Positions 4,119 to 60,798 of a stretch of DNA of 64,000 bases are shown here, one piece after another. Origin of the DNA: an uncultured Dehalococcoidia bacterium (GTDB lineage: Bacteria > Chloroflexota > Dehalococcoidia > DSTF01 > JACRBR01); contig CAYJMG010000017.1 in assembly GCA_964371355.1 (NCBI GenBank), positions 10,277 through 74,276 on the forward strand, given 5' to 3'. The notes beneath the pieces are model-generated. The model saw only the letters and a program-made list of their open reading frames with translations, was not told where the DNA came from and made no database searches. How positions within the stretch are numbered: the first letter of the stretch is position 1; each line of letters starts with the position of its first letter. The position numbers were made by a program, and so were the translations under genes.

Positions 4119-4194
4119 TGGAGCGGGAGATGGGACTCGAACCCACGACCCTCTGCTTGGGAAGCAGATGCTCTACCGGCTGAGCTACTCCCGC
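4119..4194 (-). tRNA. tRNA-Gly (anticodon CCC), CCA encoded.
   Basis: Reverse complement reads GCGGGAG-TA-GCTC-AGCCGGTA-GAGC-A-TCTGC-TTCCCAA-GCAGA-GGGTC-GTGGG-TTCGAGT-CCCAT-CTCCCGC-T-CCA. Acceptor stem 7/7, anticodon stem 5/5, GTTCGAGTC T-loop. Confidence 0.85.
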
Positions 4195-43399: not shown

Positions 43400-44050
43400 C
43401 TATCGGTCAGGAGAAGGCTCGCGGCGGGCGATGAACGCGGCGGCCTCGCTTCGTCGGCGCAGGTTCAGCTTGTTCAGGATATTGCTGACGTAGTTCTTCA
43501 CCGTCTTGTCGCTCAGGAACACCTCCTGGGCGATCTCTTTGTTCGTCTTCCCCTCCGCGATTAGCAGCAGGATCTTGTGCTCTTGATCGGTCAGCGCGTC
43601 GAGCGGGTCGTTCTCCTTGCGCTCGTTCGCCTTGCGGACCCGCTCGAGGACCTTCTGCGTTACGACAGAGTCCAGCAGCGACTCGCCGCGCGCCGCCGCC
43701 GCTATCGCGTCGGCCAGCACGGCCCCGCGGGTCTGCTTCAGCACGTAGCCGGCCGCCCCGGCGATGATCGACGCGAACACCGCCTCCTCGTCCGCATACG
43801 ACGTGAGCATGATGACCTTCGTCTCCGGCCGCGCCTCGCGGATCTCGCGGCACGCCTCGATGCCGCTCCCATCGGGTAGCCGCACGTCCATCACGATGAC
43901 GTCGGGCTTCATCTTGGCGGCCTCAGTGATGGCCTCCTGGACGGAGCCCGCCTGCCCGACGACCTCCATGCCGTCACGGCGCGTCAGGAGTGTGCGGAGC
44001 CCCTCGCGCACGACCTCGTGGTCATCGACGATCAGTACGCGTGTAGTCAT
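43400..44050 (-). CDS. NarL/LuxR-family response regulator (DevR/DosR-like).
   Basis: REC domain VLIVDDHEVVREGL...DVIVMDVRLPDGSG. C-terminal HTH LTDQEHKILLLIAEGKTNKEIAQEVFLSDKTVKNYVSNILNKL. Confidence 0.85.
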   Translation of the reverse strand: MTTRVLIVDDHEVVREGLRTLLTRRDGMEVVGQAGSVQEAITEAAKMKPDVIVMDVRLPDGSGIEACREIREARPETKVIMLTSYADEEAVFASIIAGAAGYVLKQTRGAVLADAIAAAARGESLLDSVVTQKVLERVRKANERKENDPLDALTDQEHKILLLIAEGKTNKEIAQEVFLSDKTVKNYVSNILNKLNLRRRSEAAAFIARREPSPDR

Positions 44051-45087
44051 CGTGGTTCTCCATTCATCGTCTGAACCGGCATTTCCACCATCACATTGGT
44101 CCCGGCGCCCGGCGCCGTCTCGACCCTCAGCATCCCACCCACGGAAGCGGCCCGTGACAGCATGTTCCGCATCCCACGGTGCTCCTCGGGCAGGTCCGCC
44201 CCCGGATCGAAGCCAGTCCCATTATCCTCGATTTCGATGCGTACCACGCCATCCACCCCCCGAATCTGAATTGACAACCGCGTCGCGCGCGAGTGCTTCC
44301 TGGCGTTATTCAGCGCCTCCTGCGCGATATGGAAGATGGCCGTCTCCTGCTCGACCAGCAGCCCAGGCAGATCCGGCGCGACCTCGATCACCGTGTCGAT
44401 GAGGCTGTTGGCCTGAAACTCCGCGATCAGCCCGTTCAGGGACTCGAGCAGGTCGCCCCCATATCGCACCGGCCGCAGGTCCAGGATGTAGCTGCGGAGA
44501 TCTCGAATTGTGTCATTCAGCCGGTCGATCGCCTGGTTGACCTGGACGATGGCCTCGTCCGGCGCCGACTCCACGTCCGCCGCCGCGGTCTCCAGGTTCA
44601 GGCCCACCGCGTAGATCGACTGGATGATGCCGTCGTGCAGGTCCATGGCGATCCGCTGCCGCTCGCGCTCGGTCTCCGCGATGGTGCGAAGCTGTTCCCG
44701 CTCCGACTCCAGCCTGCGGCGGTCGGTGATGTCCCGCACGATGCTGATTACGAGGCTCGCGTCCCCGGTGCTGAACGGGCTCAAGCTGATCTCGACGGGG
44801 AACTCGCTGCCGTCGCGGCGCTGGGCGAGGAGTTGCAGGTTCGTGCCCATGGGCCGGGTCCCGGGGCGGCGCATATACGCCTCCCGATGCGATAGGTGGT
44901 GGGATCGCAACGCCTGGGGGAGTAGCATGTCGACGGTCGCGCCGGACATCTCCTCCCTCGTATAGCCAAACAGCTTTTCCGCCCGCTCGTTAGCAAGCAC
45001 GATGCGACCCTGCGCATCGACGACAACGATGCCGTCCGGCGCCGCTTCACAAATGTAGCGGAAAAGGTCGTCGCGTTCTCGCTCCAT
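44047..45087 (-). CDS. PAS-domain sensor histidine kinase (HisKA_3 / NarX-DevS class).
   Basis: A PAS domain, then H-box MDLHDGIIQSIYAV, then an HATPase_c domain. ATGA-coupled to the response regulator. Confidence 0.8.
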   Translation of the reverse strand: MERERDDLFRYICEAAPDGIVVVDAQGRIVLANERAEKLFGYTREEMSGATVDMLLPQALRSHHLSHREAYMRRPGTRPMGTNLQLLAQRRDGSEFPVEISLSPFSTGDASLVISIVRDITDRRRLESEREQLRTIAETERERQRIAMDLHDGIIQSIYAVGLNLETAAADVESAPDEAIVQVNQAIDRLNDTIRDLRSYILDLRPVRYGGDLLESLNGLIAEFQANSLIDTVIEVAPDLPGLLVEQETAIFHIAQEALNNARKHSRATRLSIQIRGVDGVVRIEIEDNGTGFDPGADLPEEHRGMRNMLSRAASVGGMLRVETAPGAGTNVMVEMPVQTMNGEPR

Positions 45088-48531: not shown

Positions 48532-50616
48532 CTATCGCACGCGGATCTGCCCGATGGTGATCAGGTTCGCGGCATCTGCCTGCGCCTGCGTGGGATCGCC
48601 CGTCGAGTCGAACACCGCCAGCCGGATGTCGTACAGGCCCGGCGCCAGGTCGCGCGGGACGAGCGAGAAGTACGACTCCCGGTAGATCGGGCCAGTCTCC
48701 CACTCCGACGTCTCCCGCAGCCCCTGGCCGATGTCGCGGGGCTGCGACCACACCGGGAACCCGCGCCGCTGCAACGCCGCCCCGGCCGAGTCGAACATCA
48801 GGGTGGTCGCGCTCAGGTCGACGTCCACGGCGCCGTCCGCGCGCCAGAAGTACTCCATCTGCACCACGTCGCCCCGCCCGACCTCCGCCACGCCGGTCTG
48901 GAAACCCACCAGCGTGACGCCATGCGCGAACGCGATCTCGCGCTCCGCCCCGGCGGGGGTGCTGGTGACGACCGGGTCCGCCGCCTCCAGCAGCAGCTTG
49001 TACAGGCTGCCCGTCATCACCAGGTCGTCGCGGTACGCCGGCTTCGGCAACGAATCCACGACCATGCGTTCGATCCCCTCCAACAGCACCGGCTGCAGCA
49101 CGAACTCCTCACGCAGTCCGCCGGCCGGCGTCCGCAGGCCCTCCGCGACGTACACGCCGCGCCCTTGCTCCAGATATGGCCGGGCGAACGCGCTCACATC
49201 CTCCCCCGGCACCGAGAAGATCGGCGAGACGAGTACGTCCAGCCGCTCTCGCTCGACGAGCTGTACGTACCACAGCGGCGAGGCCGTCCAGCTATCGGTG
49301 AGGATTACGGACTCCGGCGGCACCCGCTCCAGCGTCGTCCGCGCGAAGTCCAGCGCGTTGTAGTCCTCGCTGCGGTCAACGCGCTCGTAGTTGCGGAAGA
49401 ACAGGAACGCCGGAAGCAGCGCGATGATGGCCGCCATGCCGGCCAGGCTGACGTGCGGCCGGATGCCACCGCGCTCCTCCGCGAGGCGGCGCACGGTCTC
49501 CGCCAGCCAGGCTGCCGCAACACCGATGAACACGCAGAGCCCCAGGTATCCGGGCGTCAGGTAGTTGTAGATGTTGTGGATTCCGTAGGACTCCACCACC
49601 GCCGCGTCCAGCAGGACGAGCATCGCGAAGAACGCGGCCACGGCGCGCGCGCGCAGCGCCAGGATCACCGCGCCGGCACCGCTCAGCGCCAGTCCCGCCC
49701 ACGTCAGGTCGTACGACGGGTATGCCCACAACACGTCGATGCGGTCCGCGATATCGATGCTCCAGTACCCGCCCGGCGTCTGCCCGTTGACGAACATCGA
49801 CCAGTACGTCTGCCACTCGGCCGGCCGCGCCCAGGACAGCGCCGGCTCCATCTCGCCCCGTACCGGCAGGTAGACGTACACACTCAGCCCCAGCAGGAAC
49901 GCGCCGGCGGCCAGCAGACACGCCCGTGGTGTCAGGCTGCGCCAGCCCAGCGCCAGCAGCATCAGCGACGGCGGCGCCACCAGCACGATGAGCCGGTGAT
50001 TGCACAGGCCCAGTCCCAGCGCCAGCCCTGCCAGCACCAGCGCCCGTGCATCGCCTGCCTGCGCCCCCGGAGCATCGGCTCCGCTGGAGGTCGCATCCAC
50101 GGCTGGCAAGCGTCCCCGCCACCAGGTGAGCATGAGACGGGCGATCGCCGCCGTGAAGAACAGGTTCATGCCGTACGACGTCGCCCACGTCGCGTTCGCC
50201 CACACCGTCGACGCGAACGCCAGCGTCAGCGCGCCGGCCGTCGCGCCAATGTAATCGCGTGTCAGGTCGCGAATGATGCCGAACACGATCGCGACCGCCA
50301 GCGCTGTAAACACGGCCGACATCAGGTTGACGCGCCACGCTGTTTCGCCGAACGGAAGGAACGTGAACGCCTTCCCGACGATGATCAGCAGCGGATACCC
50401 GGTGTTGTGCGCGATCCCCAGCGTCGCCGATGTGGTGGCGAACTCGCCCATGTCGTACCACATCACGCTGGGCGCGAGCGTCGTGAGGTAGACGCTGAAC
50501 ACCAGCCCGCCTGTTAGCGCAGCGGCAAGCCACGCCGAAAGGGCCGCACCCACGCGCACGTGCGCCAGCGTCAGCTTCGCTGTGGACAGGCGGCCGCGGG
50601 GCGTATCAAGCTGCAT
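48532..50616 (-). CDS. DUF2723 / TMEM260-like GT-C-fold membrane glycosyltransferase (protein-O-mannosyltransferase-like) with a C-terminal soluble domain.
   Basis: Hallmark N-terminal block YLTTLAPSVMWYDMGEFATTSATLGIAHNTGYPLLIIVGKAFTFLPFGETAWRVNLMSAVF. About 11 TM helices. Overlaps the pilT stop by 11 nt and is co-oriented with it. Confidence 0.6.
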   Translation of the reverse strand: MQLDTPRGRLSTAKLTLAHVRVGAALSAWLAAALTGGLVFSVYLTTLAPSVMWYDMGEFATTSATLGIAHNTGYPLLIIVGKAFTFLPFGETAWRVNLMSAVFTALAVAIVFGIIRDLTRDYIGATAGALTLAFASTVWANATWATSYGMNLFFTAAIARLMLTWWRGRLPAVDATSSGADAPGAQAGDARALVLAGLALGLGLCNHRLIVLVAPPSLMLLALGWRSLTPRACLLAAGAFLLGLSVYVYLPVRGEMEPALSWARPAEWQTYWSMFVNGQTPGGYWSIDIADRIDVLWAYPSYDLTWAGLALSGAGAVILALRARAVAAFFAMLVLLDAAVVESYGIHNIYNYLTPGYLGLCVFIGVAAAWLAETVRRLAEERGGIRPHVSLAGMAAIIALLPAFLFFRNYERVDRSEDYNALDFARTTLERVPPESVILTDSWTASPLWYVQLVERERLDVLVSPIFSVPGEDVSAFARPYLEQGRGVYVAEGLRTPAGGLREEFVLQPVLLEGIERMVVDSLPKPAYRDDLVMTGSLYKLLLEAADPVVTSTPAGAEREIAFAHGVTLVGFQTGVAEVGRGDVVQMEYFWRADGAVDVDLSATTLMFDSAGAALQRRGFPVWSQPRDIGQGLRETSEWETGPIYRESYFSLVPRDLAPGLYDIRLAVFDSTGDPTQAQADAANLITIGQIRVR

Positions 50617-51700
50617 AGGCGGCGCTGCTCCCTAGCAGGCGCCCCAGTTCCTCGGGCGAGCGCGCACACGCGAACGCCGTGTCGCTCGAGATCGTGCGCC
50701 CTCGCACCAGTTCGGCGAGTGCCTGGTCCAGCGTGCGCATGCCGATCGCCGCGCCCGTCGCGATGATGTTCGGGATCTGGTGCGTCTTCTGCTCGCGGAT
50801 GAGGTTGCGGACCGCCGGGGTGCCAAGCATCACCTCGCACGCCGCCACGCGCCCGTCCTCCGCGACCGTCGGCACGAGGATCTGCGCGATGATGCCTTCG
50901 ACGACCATCGAGACCTGCAACCGTATCTGCTGCTGCTGGTGGGCGGGGAACGCATCCACAATGCGGTCGATCGTCTGCGGCGCGTCAGGCGTGTGCAGCG
51001 TCGCGAAGACCAGGTGCCCCGTTTCCGCAGCGGTTATCGCCGCAGCCATCGTATCAAGGTCACGCATCTCGCCCACGAGGATCACATCCGGATCCTGCCG
51101 CAGCGCCCGCCGCAGCGCCTCGGAGAACGAGCGTGTGTCGACGCCGACCTCCCGCTGCTCGATGATGCTCTTGCGGTTGTGGTGTACGAACTCGATCGGG
51201 TCCTCGATCGTAATCACGTGGCGGGCGTCGCGCTCGTTGATGCGCTCGATCATCGCTGCCAGCGTCGTCGACTTCCCGCTGCCCGTAGGCCCGGTAACGA
51301 GCACGAGGCCGCGCGGCAGGCGCGTCAGCCGGTCGCACACGGGCGGCAGCCCCAGATCCTCGATCGACATCACCGCATCGTTCACCAGCCGGAACGAGAA
51401 GTACGGGTATCCCCGCTCGAACGCGGCGTTCACGCGGAAGCGCCCGATGCCCGTCAGCTCGAACGCGTTGTCCAGCTCGCGCTCGTTCACGAACCGCTCG
51501 CGTTCGGCTTCGCCGGCGATAGCGGCCAGCACCGCCTGCAGTGCACCCGCGTCGAGCCGCGGCGCGCCGTCCACCGCGACGAGCGTCCCGTGCAGGCGCA
51601 GGATCGGCGGCGAGTTGTACGAAAGGTGCAGGTCGGACGCCTCGGAGTCGACCATCTGCCGCAGGAGATCCGCCAGCACGGGGGCCGTTCCCTCGCTCAT
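50606..51700 (-). CDS. pilT: Type IV pilus retraction ATPase PilT.
   Basis: GAGGTGA RBS before the ATG at 51700. Walker A GPTGSGKSTT. Asp box. His box HLVFATLHT. About 364 aa. ATGA coupling to pilN. Confidence 0.8.
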   Translation of the reverse strand: MSEGTAPVLADLLRQMVDSEASDLHLSYNSPPILRLHGTLVAVDGAPRLDAGALQAVLAAIAGEAERERFVNERELDNAFELTGIGRFRVNAAFERGYPYFSFRLVNDAVMSIEDLGLPPVCDRLTRLPRGLVLVTGPTGSGKSTTLAAMIERINERDARHVITIEDPIEFVHHNRKSIIEQREVGVDTRSFSEALRRALRQDPDVILVGEMRDLDTMAAAITAAETGHLVFATLHTPDAPQTIDRIVDAFPAHQQQQIRLQVSMVVEGIIAQILVPTVAEDGRVAACEVMLGTPAVRNLIREQKTHQIPNIIATGAAIGMRTLDQALAELVRGRTISSDTAFACARSPEELGRLLGSSAAYAA

Positions 51701-52272
51701 CGTGTCACCTCGACCGTGAACTGTCCCCCCGCCTGCGTGCCTGGCGTGTATGCCGTCATCCGTGCCGCCTCGAATCCGCCCTGGGTCGCCAGCTTCTGGG
51801 CGTACGCGATCCCGTCGAGCGGACCGGTCGCCTGGCCGTCGACCTTGAATCCCGTCGGCGAGCCGGTGACGGCCGTGATGTGCGCGCCGGCAGGCAAGAA
51901 CCCGAAGCCGTACAGCCAGAACATGTCTTCGTACAGCGGGCGCGTCCCGCCCTGCATGAACGCACGCTCGCCCCGCAACGCCTCGAGCCGCGCGTTGCCG
52001 GTGTCGATCTCGATGCGCAGGGCCCGCTGCTGGGCCAGCTCGCTCTCCACGGCGGTCAGCTCGAACTCGGCGCCCTTCGCCAGTTCCAGCGCGTCGTCGG
52101 CGCGCGCCTGCGCCGCCTCCAGCCGGAACGCCAGCGGGATCATCGCGAGCAGCATGACCGCCAGCACTGCGGCCACCCCGAGCGCCATCCACGACACCTG
52201 CGCCGGACGGTACTCCGCCGGCAGCAGGTTGACGTCGACGATCGCAGCCGGGCCGGTGTTCTGCATGCTCAT
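51697..52272 (-). CDS. pilN: Type IV pilus assembly protein PilN.
   Basis: VNLLPAEYR signature, a single TM helix, coiled coil. Confidence 0.6.
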   Translation of the reverse strand: MSMQNTGPAAIVDVNLLPAEYRPAQVSWMALGVAAVLAVMLLAMIPLAFRLEAAQARADDALELAKGAEFELTAVESELAQQRALRIEIDTGNARLEALRGERAFMQGGTRPLYEDMFWLYGFGFLPAGAHITAVTGSPTGFKVDGQATGPLDGIAYAQKLATQGGFEAARMTAYTPGTQAGGQFTVEVTR

Positions 52273-53162
52273 GCGGCAATGTCCTTCAACGCCATGCCGA
52301 CATTGGCCGCGAATCCCACGGTGTCCTGCTCCGGCGACAGCACGAGCCGCAGCGGGGGCATCTCCACCTCACGGCCCGTCATCTCGCGGATCTCGGGCGC
52401 CAGCATCGCCCGGGGCGCCGCGTCGCCGACGAGCGTGATCGGCAGCTGGCCCGCCAACTCGTCGTCGCGGTGCGTGTCGCGATAGAACTTCAGCGTGCGC
52501 GTCAGCTCCTCCGCTAGCTGCCGCGCCCACTCCGTATCCTCTGCGCCCGCCACCAGGTCCACGTGACGGACGACGCTCGGCATGCCGTCGCGGAATATGG
52601 AGATCTCTGCTTCGTCGTCCTCCACGCAGGCGATGACGCTATCGCTTTGCCCAACTGCGCGCGCCGCGGCGATGATGCGCAGGTCCGCCGACTGCGGATG
52701 CAGGCCGGCCGCTCGCGCCGCCGCCACATGCGAATCGACGATATCGCGCGCCACACCGACGACGAATACGACGGCGTTCGTGTCGCGGTCGCGCAGGCGC
52801 GTCCAGCTCACGTACGCGTTCTCCCCCATCATCGGCATCTCGCGCCGGATCTCCCGCGAGACCAGCTCATCGAACCGCTTGCCCTTCACCCTCGGCAGCT
52901 CCAGCACCCGGAACACAGTCCGCTGTGCCGGGACCGCCAGGGCTACCTGCATGCGGCCCTTCCCGCCGAAGTCCCGCGCCTCGCGCAGGATGCGCCCGGT
53001 CGCGTCTGGCTCCACGACGACGCCGTCGGACAGCGAGCCCGCAGGCAACGGCACCCGCCCGGACGACGAGACCCGCCCCTTCCCGCCGATCGTCCAGCGG
53101 ACGCCCGATGGATGGAAGGCGATGGTGAGCACGGGCTGCCGCAGAATTGACCGCAGGTTCAT
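52269..53162 (-). CDS. pilM: Type IV pilus assembly protein PilM-like (actin-fold), atypical N-terminus.
   Basis: C-terminal half resembles PilM/FtsA-like proteins. ATGA-coupled on both sides. The N-terminal ATP-binding motif was not recognised. Confidence 0.5.
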   Translation of the reverse strand: MNLRSILRQPVLTIAFHPSGVRWTIGGKGRVSSSGRVPLPAGSLSDGVVVEPDATGRILREARDFGGKGRMQVALAVPAQRTVFRVLELPRVKGKRFDELVSREIRREMPMMGENAYVSWTRLRDRDTNAVVFVVGVARDIVDSHVAAARAAGLHPQSADLRIIAAARAVGQSDSVIACVEDDEAEISIFRDGMPSVVRHVDLVAGAEDTEWARQLAEELTRTLKFYRDTHRDDELAGQLPITLVGDAAPRAMLAPEIREMTGREVEMPPLRLVLSPEQDTVGFAANVGMALKDIAA

Positions 53163-53797
53163 CGCGCACTCCCCGGCGTCACCACCGCGACGGGCGTCGG
53201 CGGGATGACGAGCGTATACACGCTGAACACGATCTCGGCGTGGGCTGTGTTCGCTTCGTTGACCGACATCGAGGTGATCGTCGGAATGAGGCCGGGCTCC
53301 GCCTCTCCGAGCTGTGTCAGGAAGTCGACCAACTGGCTGACGCCGCCCTCCACGGTCATACGGATCCCTTCGACGTCGTACGTCGCTTCCGCGTTCTTGA
53401 CCTGCGACGATGGAGCGCTCGCCAGACCACGTACGTTCAGCGCCGACGCTGTCGCACGCTGGATGAGCAGCGATGTCGCCGCGTCCGATGACGGATCGAC
53501 GGAGGGCGGCAGGGCCAGAGCCTCGGCCGTGGCAAGGGCCGCCTTTGACCCGGCAAGTTCGTTCTCCAGCCCGGTCGTGTCGACGGGTGGCAGCGCCAGC
53601 AGCGCCTCGGCGTCGGCGTATCGCCGCAGCGCCGTCTCCTCATCGTTGTGGGCCTTCCACGTGCCGGCGAACAACGAGCCGATCGACAGGAGGACAGCCA
53701 CCACGCACACCGCCGTCAGCACGCGTGCGGGGACGTGCAGGCGCTCTCCCGACACGAACATGTCGCTGATTCGGCGAGGGTTCAGTTGAGCTGCCAC
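53159..53797 (-). CDS. Pilus assembly membrane protein (PilO-like: N-terminal TM plus coiled coil).
   Basis: Bitopic architecture and operon position. Weak sequence evidence. Confidence 0.4.
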   Translation of the reverse strand: MAAQLNPRRISDMFVSGERLHVPARVLTAVCVVAVLLSIGSLFAGTWKAHNDEETALRRYADAEALLALPPVDTTGLENELAGSKAALATAEALALPPSVDPSSDAATSLLIQRATASALNVRGLASAPSSQVKNAEATYDVEGIRMTVEGGVSQLVDFLTQLGEAEPGLIPTITSMSVNEANTAHAEIVFSVYTLVIPPTPVAVVTPGSAR

Positions 53798-54513
53798 GAT
53801 GCCACCCTCACCCCGCTATACCCGGCTACCAGCCGCGCGACTGTGCTGCGGCTGCCGGTGGTCGAGCGCACCTCGTAGGTCGCGGCCGGGACGGAGAGCT
53901 GCACCGTCCCCGTCGTCGCCGTATCGGTCGAAACCAGGAGCTGATACGTGCCCGCGCTCGCCAGCGTGAAGTCGGCCCCCACCTGCGGTGCGGTCCCCGC
54001 CGGGGTGAGGCCGCCCGGCTTCACGCACGGCGCTCCGTCGGCCAGCAGCGCCAACCACACCTGCCCCGCGTCGACCGTAATCCGCGCCGAGAGCGTGCCC
54101 GCCTCCGATGCCGACACCGTGTAGCACTTGTCTCCTCCGCCCGATTGCCAGGCCGGCGCTTGCGCCTCCACGGCGGCCTCGCCGGAGACGTACCGGATCT
54201 CCGTTTGCGGGAACGCCTCGCCGTTCACCGTCGCCGGGAACGGCTGCAGGGGCACCGCGGTAAAGGTAGTAACGGCGGTCAGGCGGGGATCCGATATCAG
54301 GCGCCACCCTGACCACTCGATGCCCGCATCCATGCTGTATCGCTCCATCGCCCTGCGCCCGACGAGGCTCGTCGCCTGGGAACCGCCGCTCGCCCCATCC
54401 AGCAGCGGCGCAATGAGGATCACGCCCAGCGCAAGCGCGCCGATGGCGATCGGCAGGGCCTGCCCTCGCTCTCCCCTAGGGGTTATCAGCCACGAAAATA
54501 CGCGTCGCATCAT
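53782..54513 (-). CDS. Hypothetical membrane-anchored or secreted protein in the pilus operon.
   Basis: Start MMRRVFSWLITPRGERGQALPIAIGALALGVILIAPLL (ATGA overlap with the upstream gene). Beta-rich Thr/Gly/Ala composition. Confidence 0.4.
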   Translation of the reverse strand: MMRRVFSWLITPRGERGQALPIAIGALALGVILIAPLLDGASGGSQATSLVGRRAMERYSMDAGIEWSGWRLISDPRLTAVTTFTAVPLQPFPATVNGEAFPQTEIRYVSGEAAVEAQAPAWQSGGGDKCYTVSASEAGTLSARITVDAGQVWLALLADGAPCVKPGGLTPAGTAPQVGADFTLASAGTYQLLVSTDTATTGTVQLSVPAATYEVRSTTGSRSTVARLVAGYSGVRVASWQLN

Positions 54514-57077
54514 GGCGTCAACGCCAGGTAGTAGTAGGTCGAGCCGTTGGTGTTCACCTGCGAGTGCGTCCCGACCTGGAACCCGTCCGCCAGCAGAGAC
54601 TGAATCTTGTTGGCGGCCGACCCGCCGGCGTCCCAGTACAGCGTCCGGTCGCCCGACACGGTGTCCGTGCGCCAGACGCCCTCGCTCGACGCCGAGCGCT
54701 TCGCCCACACGAAGTCCGGCGTAATCCCGACCCCCGTGATGTTCCGGTTGTCCGTACCGTTGCCGACGTAGGAGCCGACCTTCACCTGGGCCGTCGCGTC
54801 GAACGCGATCCAGTAGTAGGTCCGGCCGCTGCCGTTCACGTCGGCGTTCGTCCCCAGCTGGAAGCCGTCGGCCAGGATGGACTGGATCCGGTTGGCGAAC
54901 GAGTTGCCCCCGTTCATCAGGAACGACGCGTCGCCCGCTACCGGCCCCGGCCGGAAGACATCCTGCTCGTTGTCCGCCATCGTCATCACCCAGTCCGGCT
55001 GGAACCCGACGCCCGTGATGCTGCGATTGTCGACTGCGTTGCCGGCGTAGCTGCCGATCTGCACGTTCGTCCCCGCCTTCATCGCCACCCAGTGGTACAG
55101 GCGTCCGCTCGTGTTCACGTTCGCGTTCGACCCGATCTGGAAGCCATCGGCCAAGAACGCCTGGATGTAGTTCGTCTGTAACGACGTGTTGGACGTGATC
55201 CGCTTCGCGCGGTCGGAAGGCATGCTCGACGTGCTGATCACGGGCGCTGTGTTGTTGTCATAGCGGACAATCACGATGTCCGGCTGGAAACCGACACCCG
55301 TGATATCGCGATTATCCGTGCCGTCGCCCGTGTAGCTGCCGGTCGCGAACCAGACCTCCGCCGGCGACGTCGGCGTGGGCGTGTTCGTAAACGTCGGCGT
55401 CGGCGTCGATGTGATCGTAGGCGTCGCTGTCGATGTTGGTGATGCCGCGGCGGCGTCATAGCAAAGCTGGCTCTGCGGGATCACCTGCTTCGCCTGACTC
55501 GCGCTCGACCACGACAGCGCGGCCACCGCGAGACCGCCGTTCTCGTAGAAGTCCATCTGTACCGTGTAGGCGACACCGGCGGTCAGCGCGATCGTCCCGC
55601 TGTTCTCCGTGGTCGCGTGGTCGGTCCAGTTGTTGACGATCTGGGTGCCATCCACCCACAGCCGCACACCGTCGTCGGACTGGGTGTAGAAAGTGTACGT
55701 CTCCGAGTACAGCGGTACGACGTACCCAGTCCATCGGACCGAGAACGTGTCCGCACCGATCGCCGGGTCCGGCGAGCCGGCTGCCCAATCGAAGTTGACT
55801 GTCGCGTCGACCCGGGTCAGCGCCAGCGACGTGAAGTTCGTGTTGTTGTAGTAGTCGCCGCCCAGCCCCGCGCACGTCAGCGCCGGCGTCGGCGTCGATG
55901 TCGGCGTGAACGTGTTGGTCGCCGTGGGCGTATTCGACGGCGTCGGCGTGTTCGTTGGCGTCGGCGTGTTCGTCGGCGTCGATGTCGGCGGCGGCGCGTA
56001 GTACACGTTGATCGGGATCCAGTCCAGGTACAGCTCCTGGCCCGAGTTCCCCAGGTCCATCGTGACGCGCACCCGCAGGTTCGTGTCGTTCAGCTCCGCG
56101 CCGGTCCACGTCCGCCCCCAGGTGTCGGCGCTCGACCCCAGAATCACCGTCGTCTCACTCGTCGGCTCACTGCCGTCGCTCTTGGCGCTCGTCCACGACG
56201 TACCGCCGTCCCACGAGAGCTGCGCGCTGATGCTGTTGCTGCCGCCCGTGTTCTTCAGCCAGTAGTCCAGCCGCAGGGCGATGCCCGTGACGTCGCACCC
56301 GGCCGGCAGGTTCATCCCGTACGTGTAGTACCGGTGCCGGTCGCCGTCGCCGCCGTTATTCGTAGCGTTTCCACCGCCGTCCGCATACGCGTTCGCCGGC
56401 GTGAGTTCGAACCCGTCGCCGTTCCCGCCCGTGTCCGCCACGTTCGCACTCGGGCTCAAGTATCCGGTGCTGCTATTGGTACACGCCGCCGGCGTGAAGG
56501 TCGGGGTCAACGTCGGCGTGTCCGTCGGTGTCGGGGTGGCGGTGAACGTCGGCGTCGGCGTGAACGTCACCGTCGGGAAGGGCGTGGTTGGCAGGTCGTC
56601 GACGCGCATCGTCGTCGTCTCGGTCCGCGTCTGCGTGCCACTGTTGCCCTGCTGCACCGTCAGCGTGTACGTCACGTTGTTGCCCGACTGCGTTGCCGTG
56701 AAACCGCCCGACACGACGTTCCGCGCGACGACGTGTGTGTTCGGCACGCCGCCCACCGTGATCGTGCGCTGCAGCTCGTCGCCCACCTGCTGGAAGCGAC
56801 TGCTGTACGCCGTGCCCGTGCTGTAGTCGGTCCACTGCATCGTCACGTCGCCCGCGGCCACCGCCGCCAGAGACGCAACGCCCGACTGCGTGTCCTGGTT
56901 CAGCCAGAAGAACCCCGTCCGCAACTGGTGCGTCGCCGAAAGCTGGTCCTGGCCCTGCGTCGTCGTCTTCAGGATCGACACCAGCGTCATGCCCGCCGTC
57001 GAGAGGATCATGCTGACGATGGCGATGCCGATCACCAGCTCGACCAGACCGATGCCCAGCTCCCCCCGGCCCTTCAT
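54510..57077 (-). CDS. Giant (855 aa) type IV pilin-like adhesin. N-terminal pilin helix, then a PA14 domain, then three ~93-aa C-terminal repeats separated by Thr/Pro-rich linkers.
   Basis: N-terminus MKGRGELG|IGLVELVIGIAIVSMIL (class III signal-like, Glu at +5). PA14 core FSVRWTGYVVPLYSETYTFYTQSDDGVRLWVDGTQIVNNW...YENGG. Three repeats ITGVGFQPD...ADGFQIG...G..Y. Linkers TPTPTFTATPTPTDTPTLTPTFTP and others. Confidence 0.7.
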   Translation of the reverse strand: MKGRGELGIGLVELVIGIAIVSMILSTAGMTLVSILKTTTQGQDQLSATHQLRTGFFWLNQDTQSGVASLAAVAAGDVTMQWTDYSTGTAYSSRFQQVGDELQRTITVGGVPNTHVVARNVVSGGFTATQSGNNVTYTLTVQQGNSGTQTRTETTTMRVDDLPTTPFPTVTFTPTPTFTATPTPTDTPTLTPTFTPAACTNSSTGYLSPSANVADTGGNGDGFELTPANAYADGGGNATNNGGDGDRHRYYTYGMNLPAGCDVTGIALRLDYWLKNTGGSNSISAQLSWDGGTSWTSAKSDGSEPTSETTVILGSSADTWGRTWTGAELNDTNLRVRVTMDLGNSGQELYLDWIPINVYYAPPPTSTPTNTPTPTNTPTPSNTPTATNTFTPTSTPTPALTCAGLGGDYYNNTNFTSLALTRVDATVNFDWAAGSPDPAIGADTFSVRWTGYVVPLYSETYTFYTQSDDGVRLWVDGTQIVNNWTDHATTENSGTIALTAGVAYTVQMDFYENGGLAVAALSWSSASQAKQVIPQSQLCYDAAAASPTSTATPTITSTPTPTFTNTPTPTSPAEVWFATGSYTGDGTDNRDITGVGFQPDIVIVRYDNNTAPVISTSSMPSDRAKRITSNTSLQTNYIQAFLADGFQIGSNANVNTSGRLYHWVAMKAGTNVQIGSYAGNAVDNRSITGVGFQPDWVMTMADNEQDVFRPGPVAGDASFLMNGGNSFANRIQSILADGFQLGTNADVNGSGRTYYWIAFDATAQVKVGSYVGNGTDNRNITGVGITPDFVWAKRSASSEGVWRTDTVSGDRTLYWDAGGSAANKIQSLLADGFQVGTHSQVNTNGSTYYYLALTP
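55361..56591 (-). repeat. Three interspersed Thr/Pro-codon microsatellite-like tracts (ACG/CCG-rich) encoding the TP linkers of the giant pilin adhesin (about 56490-56591, 55883-55997, 55361-55442).
   Basis: On the + strand they appear as runs of gtcggcgtcgg / gttggcgtcgg units. In the protein they are the TPTPT... linkers. Confidence 0.6.
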
Positions 57078-57442
57078 CGGTCCACCTTGTACCCCTCGAG
57101 GGTGTACACGACGAGGCCGTCCTTCGTGACCTGCACCGTCACGAGCTGGATGTCGGCGTCCCCACCCGAGATCGTGCTCGCGTTCGCGCTCACGGTGTAA
57201 CCGCCGGGCGGGGTTACCGTCGGGTACGACGAGGGCGCCGCCTGGTACGCGGTTTCCTTCGTGTACTCCATCTGCGAACGCGCCAGCTCGTGCGCCGTCG
57301 AGAGCCGGTCGGAGTGGTTGGATGAGAGGACGCCCGTCGACATTCCAGCCAGGAACACGATCAGCGCGATCGCGAGGATCGCGACCGACACCAGCGCTTC
57401 AACGAGCGTGAATCCGTCTTCGGCCCGGAGGCGCGCGATCAT
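57074..57442 (-). CDS. Type IV minor pilin / pseudopilin.
   Basis: Prepilin signal MIARLRAEDG|FTLVEALVSVAILAIAL (G-F cleavage site, Glu+5). Confidence 0.75.
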   Translation of the reverse strand: MIARLRAEDGFTLVEALVSVAILAIALIVFLAGMSTGVLSSNHSDRLSTAHELARSQMEYTKETAYQAAPSSYPTVTPPGGYTVSANASTISGGDADIQLVTVQVTKDGLVVYTLEGYKVDR

Positions 57443-58683
57443 GGCGTGGGCGCCGGACCCGACCCGGCCGTGGCGTCGTTGATGTTCCCGATGAGCTGGT
57501 ACATCGGCATGATCAGCGACAGCGCCACAAAACCGACGATGAGACCCACGACCAGCGTCAGCGCGGGCGTCAGCATCGCCGCCAACGCGTCGACCTTCTG
57601 GTCTACCTCACGCGTGAAGAACGCGGCCGTGATATTGAGGTTGGCGTCCAACGTGCCCGTCTCCTCGCCCACGGCCACCATCTGGACGAGCATCGGCGGG
57701 AAGCATCTCGCGCGGGCCATGGGGCCCGAAAGCCCGTCGCCGTCGATCAGGTCGCGCCGCACGGTCTCCACCTTCTCCCGCAGGATGCTGTTGTCGGTGG
57801 TCTTGACCAGCATGTCCATGACCTCGGTCAGCGGCAGGCCCGCCCGCAGCATCAGCGAGAGCGTGCGACTAAAACGCGCCGCGTTCGCGTTGATGGTGAC
57901 GTCTTTCATCACGGGCACGGTGATCTGCAAGCGATGCAGGAACCGCTTGCCGGCCGGCTGGCCCGCCAGCAGCGTCCCCGCCAGCAGCACGAGCACCGAC
58001 ACTCCGAGGATCTGCACGCGATACGCCGCGGCGAAGTCGCTCGACGCCATCAAGAGGCGTGTCGTGATCGGCAGATCCCCGCCGAACTCGTCAAAAAGCT
58101 GGGTCAGCGCCGGCAGCGCCGTCGTCATCAGGAGGCCCGCCACGCCGACCGCCAGCACCATGATGAACGCCGGGTAGGCGAACGCCGACCGCACCCGCTT
58201 CATCACCTCGTCCTCGCGCTCCATGTAGTCGGCGAGCTGGTTCAGCATCTCCTCCAGCCGCCCCGTGCGCTCGCCCAGCTCCACCATGCGCGGGTACAGC
58301 GTCGGGAAGATAGAGGGGTAACCCCGCAGCGCGTCAGCGAACGTCGTGCCTCCACGGATCTCGCGCGCGATACCCCGGATTGCGTTCGCCAACTGCTTCG
58401 ACGCCGCCTGCTCCTCCAACAGCTCCAGGCAGCGCATGACCGGGACACCGGACTCCAGCAGGGTCGCTAGCTGGCGCGAGAAGGTGATGAGCGCGCGCTT
58501 CTTCACGCCATACAGGCTCGGCAGGATCTTCTCCAGCCCTGGCAGCTCGCGCGCCTTGCGGATACTCACCACGCGGTAGTCCGCGTCCCACAGCGCGCGC
58601 TCGGCCTGCGCCTCGTTCGGGACGTCGATCTGCCCCTGGATCTGCTCGCCCGTTGGGGCGATGGCAACGTAGCGGTACGGCAT
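57439..58683 (-). CDS. pilC: Type IV pilus platform protein PilC (GspF family, two T2SSF domains).
   Basis: GGAGG RBS before the ATG at 58683. Duplicated T2SSF domains. Three TM segments. Confidence 0.8.
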   Translation of the reverse strand: MPYRYVAIAPTGEQIQGQIDVPNEAQAERALWDADYRVVSIRKARELPGLEKILPSLYGVKKRALITFSRQLATLLESGVPVMRCLELLEEQAASKQLANAIRGIAREIRGGTTFADALRGYPSIFPTLYPRMVELGERTGRLEEMLNQLADYMEREDEVMKRVRSAFAYPAFIMVLAVGVAGLLMTTALPALTQLFDEFGGDLPITTRLLMASSDFAAAYRVQILGVSVLVLLAGTLLAGQPAGKRFLHRLQITVPVMKDVTINANAARFSRTLSLMLRAGLPLTEVMDMLVKTTDNSILREKVETVRRDLIDGDGLSGPMARARCFPPMLVQMVAVGEETGTLDANLNITAAFFTREVDQKVDALAAMLTPALTLVVGLIVGFVALSLIMPMYQLIGNINDATAGSGPAPTP

Positions 58684-58694
58684 CAGGCCCCCTC

Positions 58695-60401
58695 CTACGA
58701 GATCGAGTAGACGCTGCGGAGGATTTCCGCCGGCGTGACGACGCCCTGCTTCACCTTCAACATGCCGTCGCGCCGCATCGGGATCATGCCGTCGGCGATC
58801 GCCTGCTCGCGGATCGTGTTCGCGGACGCCCCGGCCAGCAGCAGCCGGCGTATGTCTTCGTTGAGATACAGCACCTCGTACACGCCGATGCGGCCCAGGA
58901 AGCCGGTCTCGGCACAGAGGTTGCACCCCGTGCCCCGCTTCACCACCTCCAGCGCCTCACCGACCTCCGCCTCGTATACGGCCTGCTCCTCGACCCCCGG
59001 TTTCGCGTCCGTCGCACAGTAGGTGCACACCCGCCGCACCATGCGCTGGGCGACGACGCCGATGAGCGACGAAGCGATGAGGAACGCCTCGATATCCAGG
59101 TCGGTCAGGCGCATCAGCACGCCGACCGCATCGTTCGCGTGGATGGACGAGAGGACCAGGTGCCCCGTAAGCGCCGACTGGCAGGCGATGCGCGCCGTCT
59201 CGCTGTCTCGGATCTCACCGACCAGGATCACGTCCGGGTCCAGCCGCATCAGCGAGCGCAGGCCCGTCGCGAACGTGATATCCGCCTTCTCGTTCACCTG
59301 TATCTGGTTGATCCCGTCGAACTGGTACTCGACCGGATCCTCGATCGTCACGATGTTCCGCTCGGCGTCGTTCAGCATGTTCACCGAGGCGTACAGCGTC
59401 GTCGTCTTCCCCGAGCCTGTGGGCCCGCTCACCAGCACCATCCCGAACGGAGAGCGCAGCAGCCGGATATGCCGCTCCAGCGCCGCCGGCGAGAACCCCA
59501 GCTCGCGGAGCGACATGAGCGACACGCTCTTGTCCAGCACGCGCAGCACCATCATCTCCCCGTGCACCGAATCCGACGTCGCCGCGCGCAGATCGACCCG
59601 CTTGCCTTCCACCTCGGTGCTGATCTGCCCGTCCTGCGGGCGCCGCTTCTCGGCGATGTTCATCCCCGACATCACCTTGAAACGGGAGACCAGCGGCGCG
59701 TGCACGTCGCGCGGCAGCCGCATGGACTCGTGCAGCACGCCGTCGATGCGCAGCCGCACCCGGAGCGCGTCAGCCTCCGGTTCCAGGTGGATATCCGACG
59801 CGCGGTCGCGCACCGCCTGGGCCAGCAGCAGATCCGCTGTCCGCACGATCGGCGTCTGGCTGATCTGGAGGTCCAGCTCCTGGCGCTCCGCCTGAGCCTG
59901 GCTATGCAGCGTCGAGGGGACGACCAGCCCCACCTCGCGCTCGATCTCGGACGACACGCGGTAGCTGATGTTGATTGCCCGCCGGATCTCGTCCGGAATA
60001 CCGACCGCGGGCTTGATGTCGAGCCCGGTCATCGACCGCAGCTCTTCGATGATCTGGATGTTCCCGGGATCCGCCATGACAACCAGCAGCGACCGGCCGT
60101 CGGTCTCGACGGGGATCAGGGTGTGTTCGCGGCAGATCTCGGCGGGGACGAGCTGAGTGGCCTCATGCTGGATGTTCGTCCGCATGAGGTCCAGAAACCG
60201 GAGGCCAAGCTGGGTGCTCAGCGCCAGCGCCAGCGCCTCGGCGGTGACCAGCCCCTTTTGGACGACGTACTCACCCAGGCGCATGTCCGCTTCGCGGGCC
60301 TCGGTGGCGGCCCTGGCGACGTCTTCCTCAGAGAGCAAGCCCGCCTCGACCAGCATCTGGCCGAGGCGCTTGCGGAGTGTTGCTGTTGCGGTCGCGTCCA
60401 T
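58695..60401 (-). CDS. pilB: Type IV pilus assembly ATPase PilB (GspE family).
   Basis: N-terminal T2SSE_N domain (LGQMLVEAGLLSEEDV). Walker A GPTGSGKTTTLY. A tetracysteine motif near the C-terminus. Start MDATATA at 60401. The ORF's upstream Arg-rich extension is rejected. Confidence 0.8.
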   Translation of the reverse strand: MDATATATLRKRLGQMLVEAGLLSEEDVARAATEAREADMRLGEYVVQKGLVTAEALALALSTQLGLRFLDLMRTNIQHEATQLVPAEICREHTLIPVETDGRSLLVVMADPGNIQIIEELRSMTGLDIKPAVGIPDEIRRAINISYRVSSEIEREVGLVVPSTLHSQAQAERQELDLQISQTPIVRTADLLLAQAVRDRASDIHLEPEADALRVRLRIDGVLHESMRLPRDVHAPLVSRFKVMSGMNIAEKRRPQDGQISTEVEGKRVDLRAATSDSVHGEMMVLRVLDKSVSLMSLRELGFSPAALERHIRLLRSPFGMVLVSGPTGSGKTTTLYASVNMLNDAERNIVTIEDPVEYQFDGINQIQVNEKADITFATGLRSLMRLDPDVILVGEIRDSETARIACQSALTGHLVLSSIHANDAVGVLMRLTDLDIEAFLIASSLIGVVAQRMVRRVCTYCATDAKPGVEEQAVYEAEVGEALEVVKRGTGCNLCAETGFLGRIGVYEVLYLNEDIRRLLLAGASANTIREQAIADGMIPMRRDGMLKVKQGVVTPAEILRSVYSIS

Positions 60402-60447
60402 ACGAGAGCCCCACCGGGCGGGCCGGACATCCGGTCCGCGCGGCTGT

Positions 60448-60798
60448 TTACGGGTAGGCGGCCTGCGACACCTTGCCCGCCGTGTCGACGGTGTAGGTGC
60501 CGTGCGTGGCCGTGCTGCGCATGTACGTCGGTGAGAGGCTGAAGCCGCCCGCCGCCGTCGACATGTCGCTTGTCGCCGTCGTAATCGCCGTGGTCGTCGA
60601 TGAGCTGGTGTTCGCCAGCTTGGCGTCAACGGCCGTCTGCACGATCCGAAGCTCGGCCGCGCCCGCGTTCGTCTTCGACGTGCCCAGAAGGCCGACGAAG
60701 TTCGGCAGGACGACCGCGACCAGGATCCCGAGGATCGCCACCACGATCAGGAGCTCCGTCAGCGTGAAACCCTGTTCACTGTTCAGTTTCTTCAGCAT
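60448..60798 (-). CDS. pilA: Type IV major pilin (PilA-like).
   Basis: Prepilin signal MLKKLNSEQG|FTLTELLIVVAILGILVAVV. 116 aa. First gene of the operon. Confidence 0.8.
   Translation of the reverse strand: MLKKLNSEQGFTLTELLIVVAILGILVAVVLPNFVGLLGTSKTNAGAAELRIVQTAVDAKLANTSSSTTTAITTATSDMSTAAGGFSLSPTYMRSTATHGTYTVDTAGKVSQAAYP

Follow-up and report, generated by a model that had tools for sequence, protein, structure and literature searches.

A putative modular type IV minor pilin carrying D2, PA14 and DUF7483 modules in an uncultured Dehalococcoidia bacterium

The DNA analysed here is a 64,000-nucleotide stretch (the window) of contig CAYJMG010000017.1 from an uncultured Dehalococcoidia bacterium of the phylum Chloroflexota, with a G+C content of 66-70%. 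On its minus strand, within a type IV pilus operon, lies an uninterrupted open reading frame of 855 codons with an ATG start (54510-57077), and the 855-amino acid (aa) protein that it encodes, called the target below, is the subject of this report. An initial annotation of the same DNA had described this protein as a pilin-headed candidate tip adhesin or very large minor pilin with a PA14 domain and three C-terminal repeats. The gene is laid out as follows, with linkers rich in threonine and proline (TP-rich) between the globular parts.

54510..57077, minus strand: whole gene of the 855-aa putative modular minor pilin; ATG at 57075-57077, TGA at 54510-54512
57054..57077, minus strand: putative class III (prepilin-type) leader MKGRGELG, aa 1-8, with Gly(-1) last; called from the sequence and the invariance of Gly8 and Glu13
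56598..57053, minus strand: pilin module, aa 9-160, predicted α1 helix plus 8-stranded antiparallel β-sheet, GspJ-type fold
56487..56597, minus strand: TP-rich linker 1, aa 161-197, T+P fraction 0.66, predicted disorder
55992..56486, minus strand: module D2, aa 198-362, predicted galactose-binding-domain-like (CBM32/discoidin-type) β-sandwich with Cys199 and Cys261
55881..55991, minus strand: TP-rich linker 2, aa 363-399, T+P fraction 0.68
55452..55880, minus strand: PA14 domain, aa 400-542, with Cys402 and Cys539; Pfam PF07691 match at aa 404-536
55344..55451, minus strand: TP-rich linker 3, aa 543-578, T+P fraction 0.56
54513..55343, minus strand: DUF7483 domain, aa 579-855, three ~93-aa repeats; Pfam PF24299, AlphaFold2, PHROG and BFVD
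55074-55331, 54789-55073 and 54513-54788, minus strand: DUF7483 repeats R1, R2 and R3, respectively

The N-terminus reads MKGRGELG followed by IGLVELVIGIAIVSMILSTAGMTLVSIL, a short basic leader that places Gly at -1 and Glu at +5, and Glu13 is followed by the hydrophobic stretch LVIGIAIVSMILSTAGMTLVSIL, in line with the roughly 20 hydrophobic residues expected of prepilins. Both Gly8 and Glu13 are invariant across 36 aligned relatives (alignment A3). In the AlphaFold2 model of aa 1-362, built from a 79-row alignment with a mean predicted local distance difference test score (pLDDT) of 89, residues 11-65 form a 55-residue helix that lies on eight β-strands (aa 72-156), with pLDDT exceeding 90 throughout, so that the predicted head shows the arrangement of a pilin, in which a long α-helix at the N-terminus packs onto an antiparallel β-sheet. 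A search of PDB sequences with a profile of this N-terminal domain (N-domain) matched the helix alone, to geopilins at E 0.04, which was uninformative, and folds therefore had to be compared. The closest solved folds are the type II secretion system (T2SS) pseudopilins XcpW, EpsJ and GspJ, with the type IV-like pilin TTHA1219 an equally good match, and the globular part of the predicted head has the GspJ-type fold. As judged from the model, the relation of the head to the GspJ family is a resemblance of fold and not membership in a sequence family defined by a hidden Markov model (HMM).

When the N-domain profile was searched against a set of 5.8 billion proteins, at least 22 proteins matched, and 12 of the 22 listed relatives pass the N-methylation-motif HMMs. 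Relatives P0087 (27.5 bits vs 21.2) and P0104 (21.1 bits vs 16.3) score above the PF07963/TIGR02532 thresholds. Stand-alone N-domain matches of ~150 aa are named 'prepilin-type N-terminal cleavage/methylation domain-containing protein' (E ~5e-21 to 6e-18), while a distant stand-alone relative, P0387, is named 'PulJ/GspJ family protein [Anaerolineae bacterium]' by NCBI (E 8.5e-14 to the profile), and two relatives carry the JGI name 'type II secretory pathway component PulJ'.

Downstream of the head, threonine and proline make up 56-68% of the three linkers (approximately aa 161-197, 363-399 and 543-578), compared to 12-18% of the globular parts, which confirms the TP-rich linkers that had been proposed between the modules. 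Residues 170-194 of linker 1 have a pLDDT below 50 in the AlphaFold2 model, i.e., they are predicted to be disordered. The PA14 domain, also called correctly at the outset, is matched by Pfam PF07691 over aa 404-536 (E 5.4e-26, 91.6 bits vs a cut-off of 24, profile positions 4-146 of 147), and a match to GLEYA PF10528 (E 2.7e-6) overlaps it. PA14 is a well-established domain of the carbohydrate-binding type and, judged from its family alone, it may bind glycans here. A glycoside hydrolase with a PA14 insert was considered and rejected; an NCBIfam xylosidase match (E 2e-8) is confined to the PA14 region and the protein has no catalytic domain.

The initial inventory of modules was correct for PA14, the repeats and the linkers but missed a fourth globular module, D2 (aa 198-362), which lies between linkers 1 and 2. 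AlphaFold2 predicts D2 as a β-sandwich of the jelly-roll type with a pLDDT of ~95. No Pfam family matched it at E<=1, including the F5_F8_type_C and CBM models, and D2 is therefore not filed as a member of CBM32; the predicted structure resembles CBM32, F5_F8 type C and discoidin modules at the level of the fold only. The 101 homologues of D2 are mostly ~210-aa secreted proteins of Chloroflexota. Such stand-alone secreted D2 proteins of ~210 aa are numerous in Dehalococcoidia, and in P0123, P0124 and P0146 a D2 module is fused to segments matching PF01917 (archaeal flagellin type).

At the C-terminus, three repeats (aa 583-668, 669-763 and 764-855) share 42-51% pairwise identity with BLASTP E values of 6e-24 to 9e-30, far beyond chance, and the motifs ITGVG..PD, ADGFQ.G and VN..G..Y were confirmed in them. 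The ~93-aa repeats with an ITGVG pattern are thus real and lie where the initial annotation had placed them, while its view that they were novel and could be assigned to no family did not hold, and it had itself taken a match to a known domain as grounds for giving that view up. Pfam PF24299 (DUF7483) matches in three stretches at 90-94 bits vs a threshold of 27 (E 1.2e-26 when aa 579-855 are scanned separately, 1.8e-25 with the full-length protein), and the PHROG families that match are annotated 'tail fiber protein' (E 7e-33) and 'virion structural protein' (E 2e-27). Among 47 N-domain relatives, the repeats occur only in sets of three or six, which fits a single structural unit. Modelling and a Foldseek comparison of this region, as had been suggested at the outset, gave one confident, compact all-β unit of about nine strands plus a short helix per repeat (AlphaFold2, aa 579-855, 40-row alignment; pLDDT 96, predicted template-modelling score 0.93) and matches to predicted viral structures in BFVD with query-normalised template-modelling (TM) scores of 0.8-0.89 (E 1e-13 to 4e-19). 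These matches are large phage proteins, one of them named 'DUF7483 domain-containing protein'.

Using tblastn, the full three-repeat unit was found in 23 phage records, mostly of Pelagibacter phages and cyanophages, and several of the phage genes carrying it are annotated as tail fibre (HTVC011P, S-CBS2). An exhaustive HMMER search for DUF7483 returned 3876 cluster representatives, 974 of them at E<=1e-30, many being proteins of 1-7 kaa with several copies and Sec-like N-termini. The occurrence in phage fibres and giant secreted proteins suggests that DUF7483 is a widespread extracellular module; a literature search for 'DUF7483' found no papers. The giant secreted DUF7483 proteins (among P0222-P0367) reach 7419 aa, many with low-complexity sequence and Sec-like N-termini, and P0331 (GFTLMEAIIIIV...) is a second, unrelated pilin-like fusion with DUF7483. 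A wall protein anchored by sortase or in an S-layer was also considered for the target and rejected, as the C-terminus is YYYLALTP and carries no LPXTG-type signal.

The genes around the target, all on the same strand, are the following.

50606..60798, minus strand: type IV pilus operon; Pfam T2SSE, MshEN, T2SSF, PilM_2 and N_methyl
60448-60798, minus strand: pilA, major pilin, 116 aa; N_methyl
58695-60404, minus strand: pilB; T2SSE (E 6.5e-122) and MshEN
57439-58686, minus strand: pilC; T2SSF
57074-57442, minus strand: minor pilin of 122 aa, PilV/GspI-like; PF07963 E 2.3e-6, sub-threshold PilV (E 1e-5), GspI (E 7e-4) and ComGE
53782-54513, minus strand: 243-aa protein (p243) with a pilin-like N-terminus; no family match
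53159-53797, minus strand: GspM/PilO-like gene; NCBIfam sub-threshold GspM, E 1e-4
52269-53162, minus strand: pilM; PilM_2
51697-52272, minus strand: pilN-like gene; NLLP-type N-terminus read off the sequence, no family hit
50606-51700, minus strand: pilT; T2SSE
48532-50616, minus strand: TMEM260-like GT-C O-mannosyltransferase, 694 aa; PF11028 E 2.9e-31

The target is thus encoded alongside a filament assembly machinery, as expected of a pilin, with PilB, PilC, PilM, a PilN-like protein, PilT and two other pilins. Its ATG overlaps the stop codon of the upstream 122-aa minor pilin gene (ATGA, 57074-57077) and its TGA overlaps the ATG of p243 downstream (ATGA, 54510-54513), and because of these overlaps on both sides the three genes are probably translated as a unit, by translational coupling. 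One genome per species was scanned with the N-domain alignment, giving 27 loci, of which 26 belong to metagenome-assembled genomes of uncultured Chloroflexota or Dehalococcoidia. Wherever the contig is long enough (~20 loci), the order pilA-pilB-pilC-minor pilin-[N-domain gene]-p243-GspM-like-pilM-pilN-pilT-glycosyltransferase is kept, and the 122-aa minor pilin is syntenic in every related locus that reaches upstream of the target gene. The claim of a pilin-like N-terminus with Glu at +5 is therefore borne out by the motif, the predicted GspJ-type fold, the relatives named PulJ/GspJ or prepilin and this conserved position in the pilus operon.

The p243 gene is kept beside the target gene in 18 loci, and its product has two invariant Cys residues and a conserved N-terminus (RGQALPIAIGALALGVILIAPLL, consensus RGQALP(I/V/L)A..ALA.GA.L.TP.L) in which the Gly is present and Glu at +5 is not. 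GspK/PilX-type tip pilins likewise lack Glu at +5, and p243, which represents an uncharacterised family, may be a tip pilin of this type. The TMEM260-like transferase gene directly follows pilT, and this synteny recurs in at least 12 of the related loci in Chloroflexota; both the Thr/Pro linkers in the target and the C-terminal portion of the major pilin, which is rich in Ser and Thr, are candidate substrates of the enzyme. Approximately 3.5 kb past the 3′ end of the pilus operon, beyond the glycosyltransferase gene and on the same strand, the translations read as those of two regulatory genes on the minus strand, one for a response regulator of the LuxR type (43400-44050) and one for a PAS/histidine kinase (44047-45087). 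The single tRNA in the window is tRNA-Gly(CCC), 4119-4194, minus strand.

A comparison of the relatives, whose N-domains share 38-84% identity, showed that what follows the head varies widely. With N for the N-domain and R for one DUF7483 repeat, the architectures are N-RRR (the commonest), N-RRR-RRR, N-PA14-PA14-RRR, N-D2-D2, N-D2-RRR and N-PA14, while the target shares N-D2-PA14-RRR with a pair of proteins at 82% identity. L001, the nearest orthologue at the species level with 86% nucleotide identity (L001:4148-5135 vs window 55577-57077), aligns over nucleotides 1-531 and 1093-1501 of the target gene and lacks nucleotides 532-1092, a 561-nt segment that corresponds to D2 plus one linker, with both breakpoints inside Thr/Pro-linker sequence. 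The variety of architectures and the deletion in this orthologue indicate that head and operon are stable across this Chloroflexota lineage while the cargo modules are swapped as cassettes joined within the linkers. A more speculative extension, which we offer tentatively and hold to be doubtful, is that a GspJ-like tip pilin serves as the fixed carrier for fast-swapped binding cassettes, with Thr/Pro-linker DNA as the recombination junction and DUF7483 as a domain that binds receptors and has been traded with phage tail fibres, so that the tip would evolve like a phage host-range determinant, possibly with O-mannosylation of the linkers by the syntenic TMEM260-like transferase.

We therefore read the target, with a rough probability of 0.72, as a modular type IV minor pilin that is cleaved after Gly8, most likely sits in the priming or tip complex, and carries three modules on Thr/Pro linkers that most likely bind glycans, which would make the pilus a PilT-retractable adhesin. 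The sequence motifs, predicted folds, domain family membership, synteny and cargo variation were observed in this analysis, and we infer leader cleavage, incorporation into pili, position at the tip and class of ligand. Once a prepilin peptidase had removed the 8-residue leader by cutting after Gly8, the GspJ-type module (aa 9-160) would enter, via its hydrophobic α1, a pilus built by the co-encoded PilB/PilC/PilM/PilN machinery. There it would most likely join the 122-aa and 243-aa minor-pilin-like proteins in a complex that primes the pilus or sits at its tip. The CBM32/discoidin-like D2, PA14 and DUF7483 would be held outside the filament on the disordered Thr/Pro linkers, where they would most likely bind polysaccharides or cell-surface glycans, and PilT-driven retraction would pull the cell towards the bound surface. 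The initial proposal of a tip adhesin or very large minor pilin appears to be the best reading of the sequence and matches the published class of modular pilins (PMC8179133), in which a pilin module at the N-terminus is combined with one or more domains that are not particular to pilus biology; here these are the head together with PA14, DUF7483 and D2.

Several observations weigh against this reading. The target matches neither PF07963 nor TIGR02532 even at E<=1 in the Pfam and NCBIfam scans, its residue +1 is Ile where Phe or Met is usual, and it has no match to the GspJ sequence model TIGR01711, for which relatives alone reach E 0.005-0.15, far under the cut-off. Every structure used is a prediction. 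A crude regular-expression search in the six frames of the window, which does not extend to the genome beyond it, found no G.GD.K motif of a prepilin peptidase (A24), and the peptidase gene is therefore probably elsewhere in the genome. For p243, no Pfam match was obtained with the 14 orthologues scanned and no match to PDB sequences by profile; with no support from these searches for a GspK/PilX nature, the idea of a tip complex rests on gene order and fold analogy. Furthermore, PA14, CBM32-like folds and tail-fibre domains are also able to mediate protein contacts.

Three other explanations were considered, each of which we judge weaker than a modular pilin. The modules could be displayed on the pilus for cell-cell or interspecies recognition, DUF7483 targeting the surface of another microbe or acting as a phage decoy, instead of serving attachment to environmental polysaccharides. 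The presence of DUF7483 in phage tail-fibre and virion proteins fits this explanation, as does the fast turnover of cargo between close relatives, which is what diversifying pressure would produce, but PA14 and the CBM32-like fold point to glycans generally, whether on cells or on plant or microbial polymers. No diversity-generating element was seen, although no search aimed at one was made, and we consider recognition or decoy function unlikely.

The fold comparison raises another explanation, namely that the target is a pseudopilin, belonging to a T2SS-like system or to some other type IV filament that is not a pilus. It would then form the tip of a short piston that stays within the periplasm or cell wall, and its modules would hold or release substrates instead of serving adhesion. 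XcpW, EpsJ and GspJ, the closest solved folds, are T2SS components, and of the neighbours one is GspM-like (E 1e-4) and a second is similar to several families that include GspI. However, the operon encodes PilM, a PilN-like protein and a retraction ATPase of the PilT type, which are hallmarks of type IV pili that retract; the list of open reading frames shows no secretin gene beside the operon, and TTHA1219, which matches the fold equally well, is a type IV-like pilin. GspJ-like minor pilins (the PilW class) also occur in type IV pilus tip complexes, and ~700 cargo residues on long linkers fit surface display better than a short piston. A pseudopilin is thus improbable. Least likely is that the protein is no filament subunit at all, its hydrophobic helix anchoring a surface glycan-binding protein as an uncleaved signal anchor or Sec signal in a pilus operon by chance or co-regulation: the failure of the target on prepilin-motif HMMs and the usual occurrence of DUF7483, PA14 and D2 in ordinary secreted proteins with Sec-like N-termini would agree with this, but Gly(-1) and Glu(+5) are invariant, synteny and overlap with a bona fide minor pilin gene are strict across ~20 genomes, and stand-alone N-domain homologues are typical 150-aa prepilins.

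In uncultured Chloroflexota of soil, type IV pili are an unstudied feature, and the target offers a concrete, testable candidate for what these pili attach to. It also gives a first functional context to DUF7483, a domain that many phage tail fibres and giant surface proteins carry but that has neither a solved structure nor a literature, and to a 165-residue CBM32-like module that has no Pfam entry. A fixed head with swappable cargo is a natural experiment on the evolution of adhesin specificity and could guide the engineered display of binding modules on pili.

Modular pilins have been surveyed previously (Raynaud et al. 2021, PMC8179133), with more than 1200 proteins in 264 architectures and PA14 (IPR011658) among the grafted domains, and the authors noted that modular pilins are undercounted where the modules have no database signatures (PMC8179133). 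The N-terminus of the target escapes HMMs of the IPR012902 type, so that an InterPro survey of this kind would miss it; some modular pilins thus escape the standard prepilin HMM, and signature-based surveys undercount them. In Streptococcus sanguinis, the modular pilin PilB is a proven adhesin (PMC8179133). Like the target, PilB (pilin plus vWA) and PilC (pilin plus ConA-like lectin) of this organism display a binding module that is attached to a small pilin module at the N-terminus (PMC8179133; Shahin et al. 2023, PMC9934059). The target differs from them in having three unrelated cargo modules instead of one, joints of 35-aa Thr/Pro linkers instead of a short loop, and a GspJ-like pilin module, and its D2 and DUF7483 are uncharacterised. 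CofB of the enterotoxigenic Escherichia coli type IVb pilus and ComZ of Thermus are likewise large minor pilins with extra β-rich domains after the pilin module that are thought to be at the tip (PMC8179133), but these domains are unrelated to those of the target, and CofB trimerises whereas the DUF7483 domain of the target is a single chain with three internal repeats.

GspJ/XcpW/EpsJ (PDB 3nje, 2ret and 3ci0) and Thermus thermophilus TTHA1219 (5g23) share only 10-15% identity with the target head and carry no C-terminal cargo, whereas the system of the target is a retractile type IV pilus of Chloroflexota. The PilY1/PilC tip adhesins of type IVa pili are similar in being large, modular and variable adhesins tied to a minor-pilin tip complex (PMC8179133); PilY1, however, is not a pilin and docks via a C-terminal β-propeller, while in the target, in which the Pfam scan detected no PilY1 domain, the adhesin is fused to the pilin itself. 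The phage DUF7483 proteins (Pelagibacter phage HTVC011P, Synechococcus phage S-CBS2 and cyanophage SS120-1; PHROG 24898 and 19943) align with the three-repeat unit over 98% of its length at 24-30% identity, the domain being part of a virion fibre in the phages and the C-terminal module of a cellular pilin in the target. The overall design principle is already published, and the target extends a known idea and opens no new one; it is a further case of the modular-pilin class, with a new combination of modules that includes one common to phage tail fibres.

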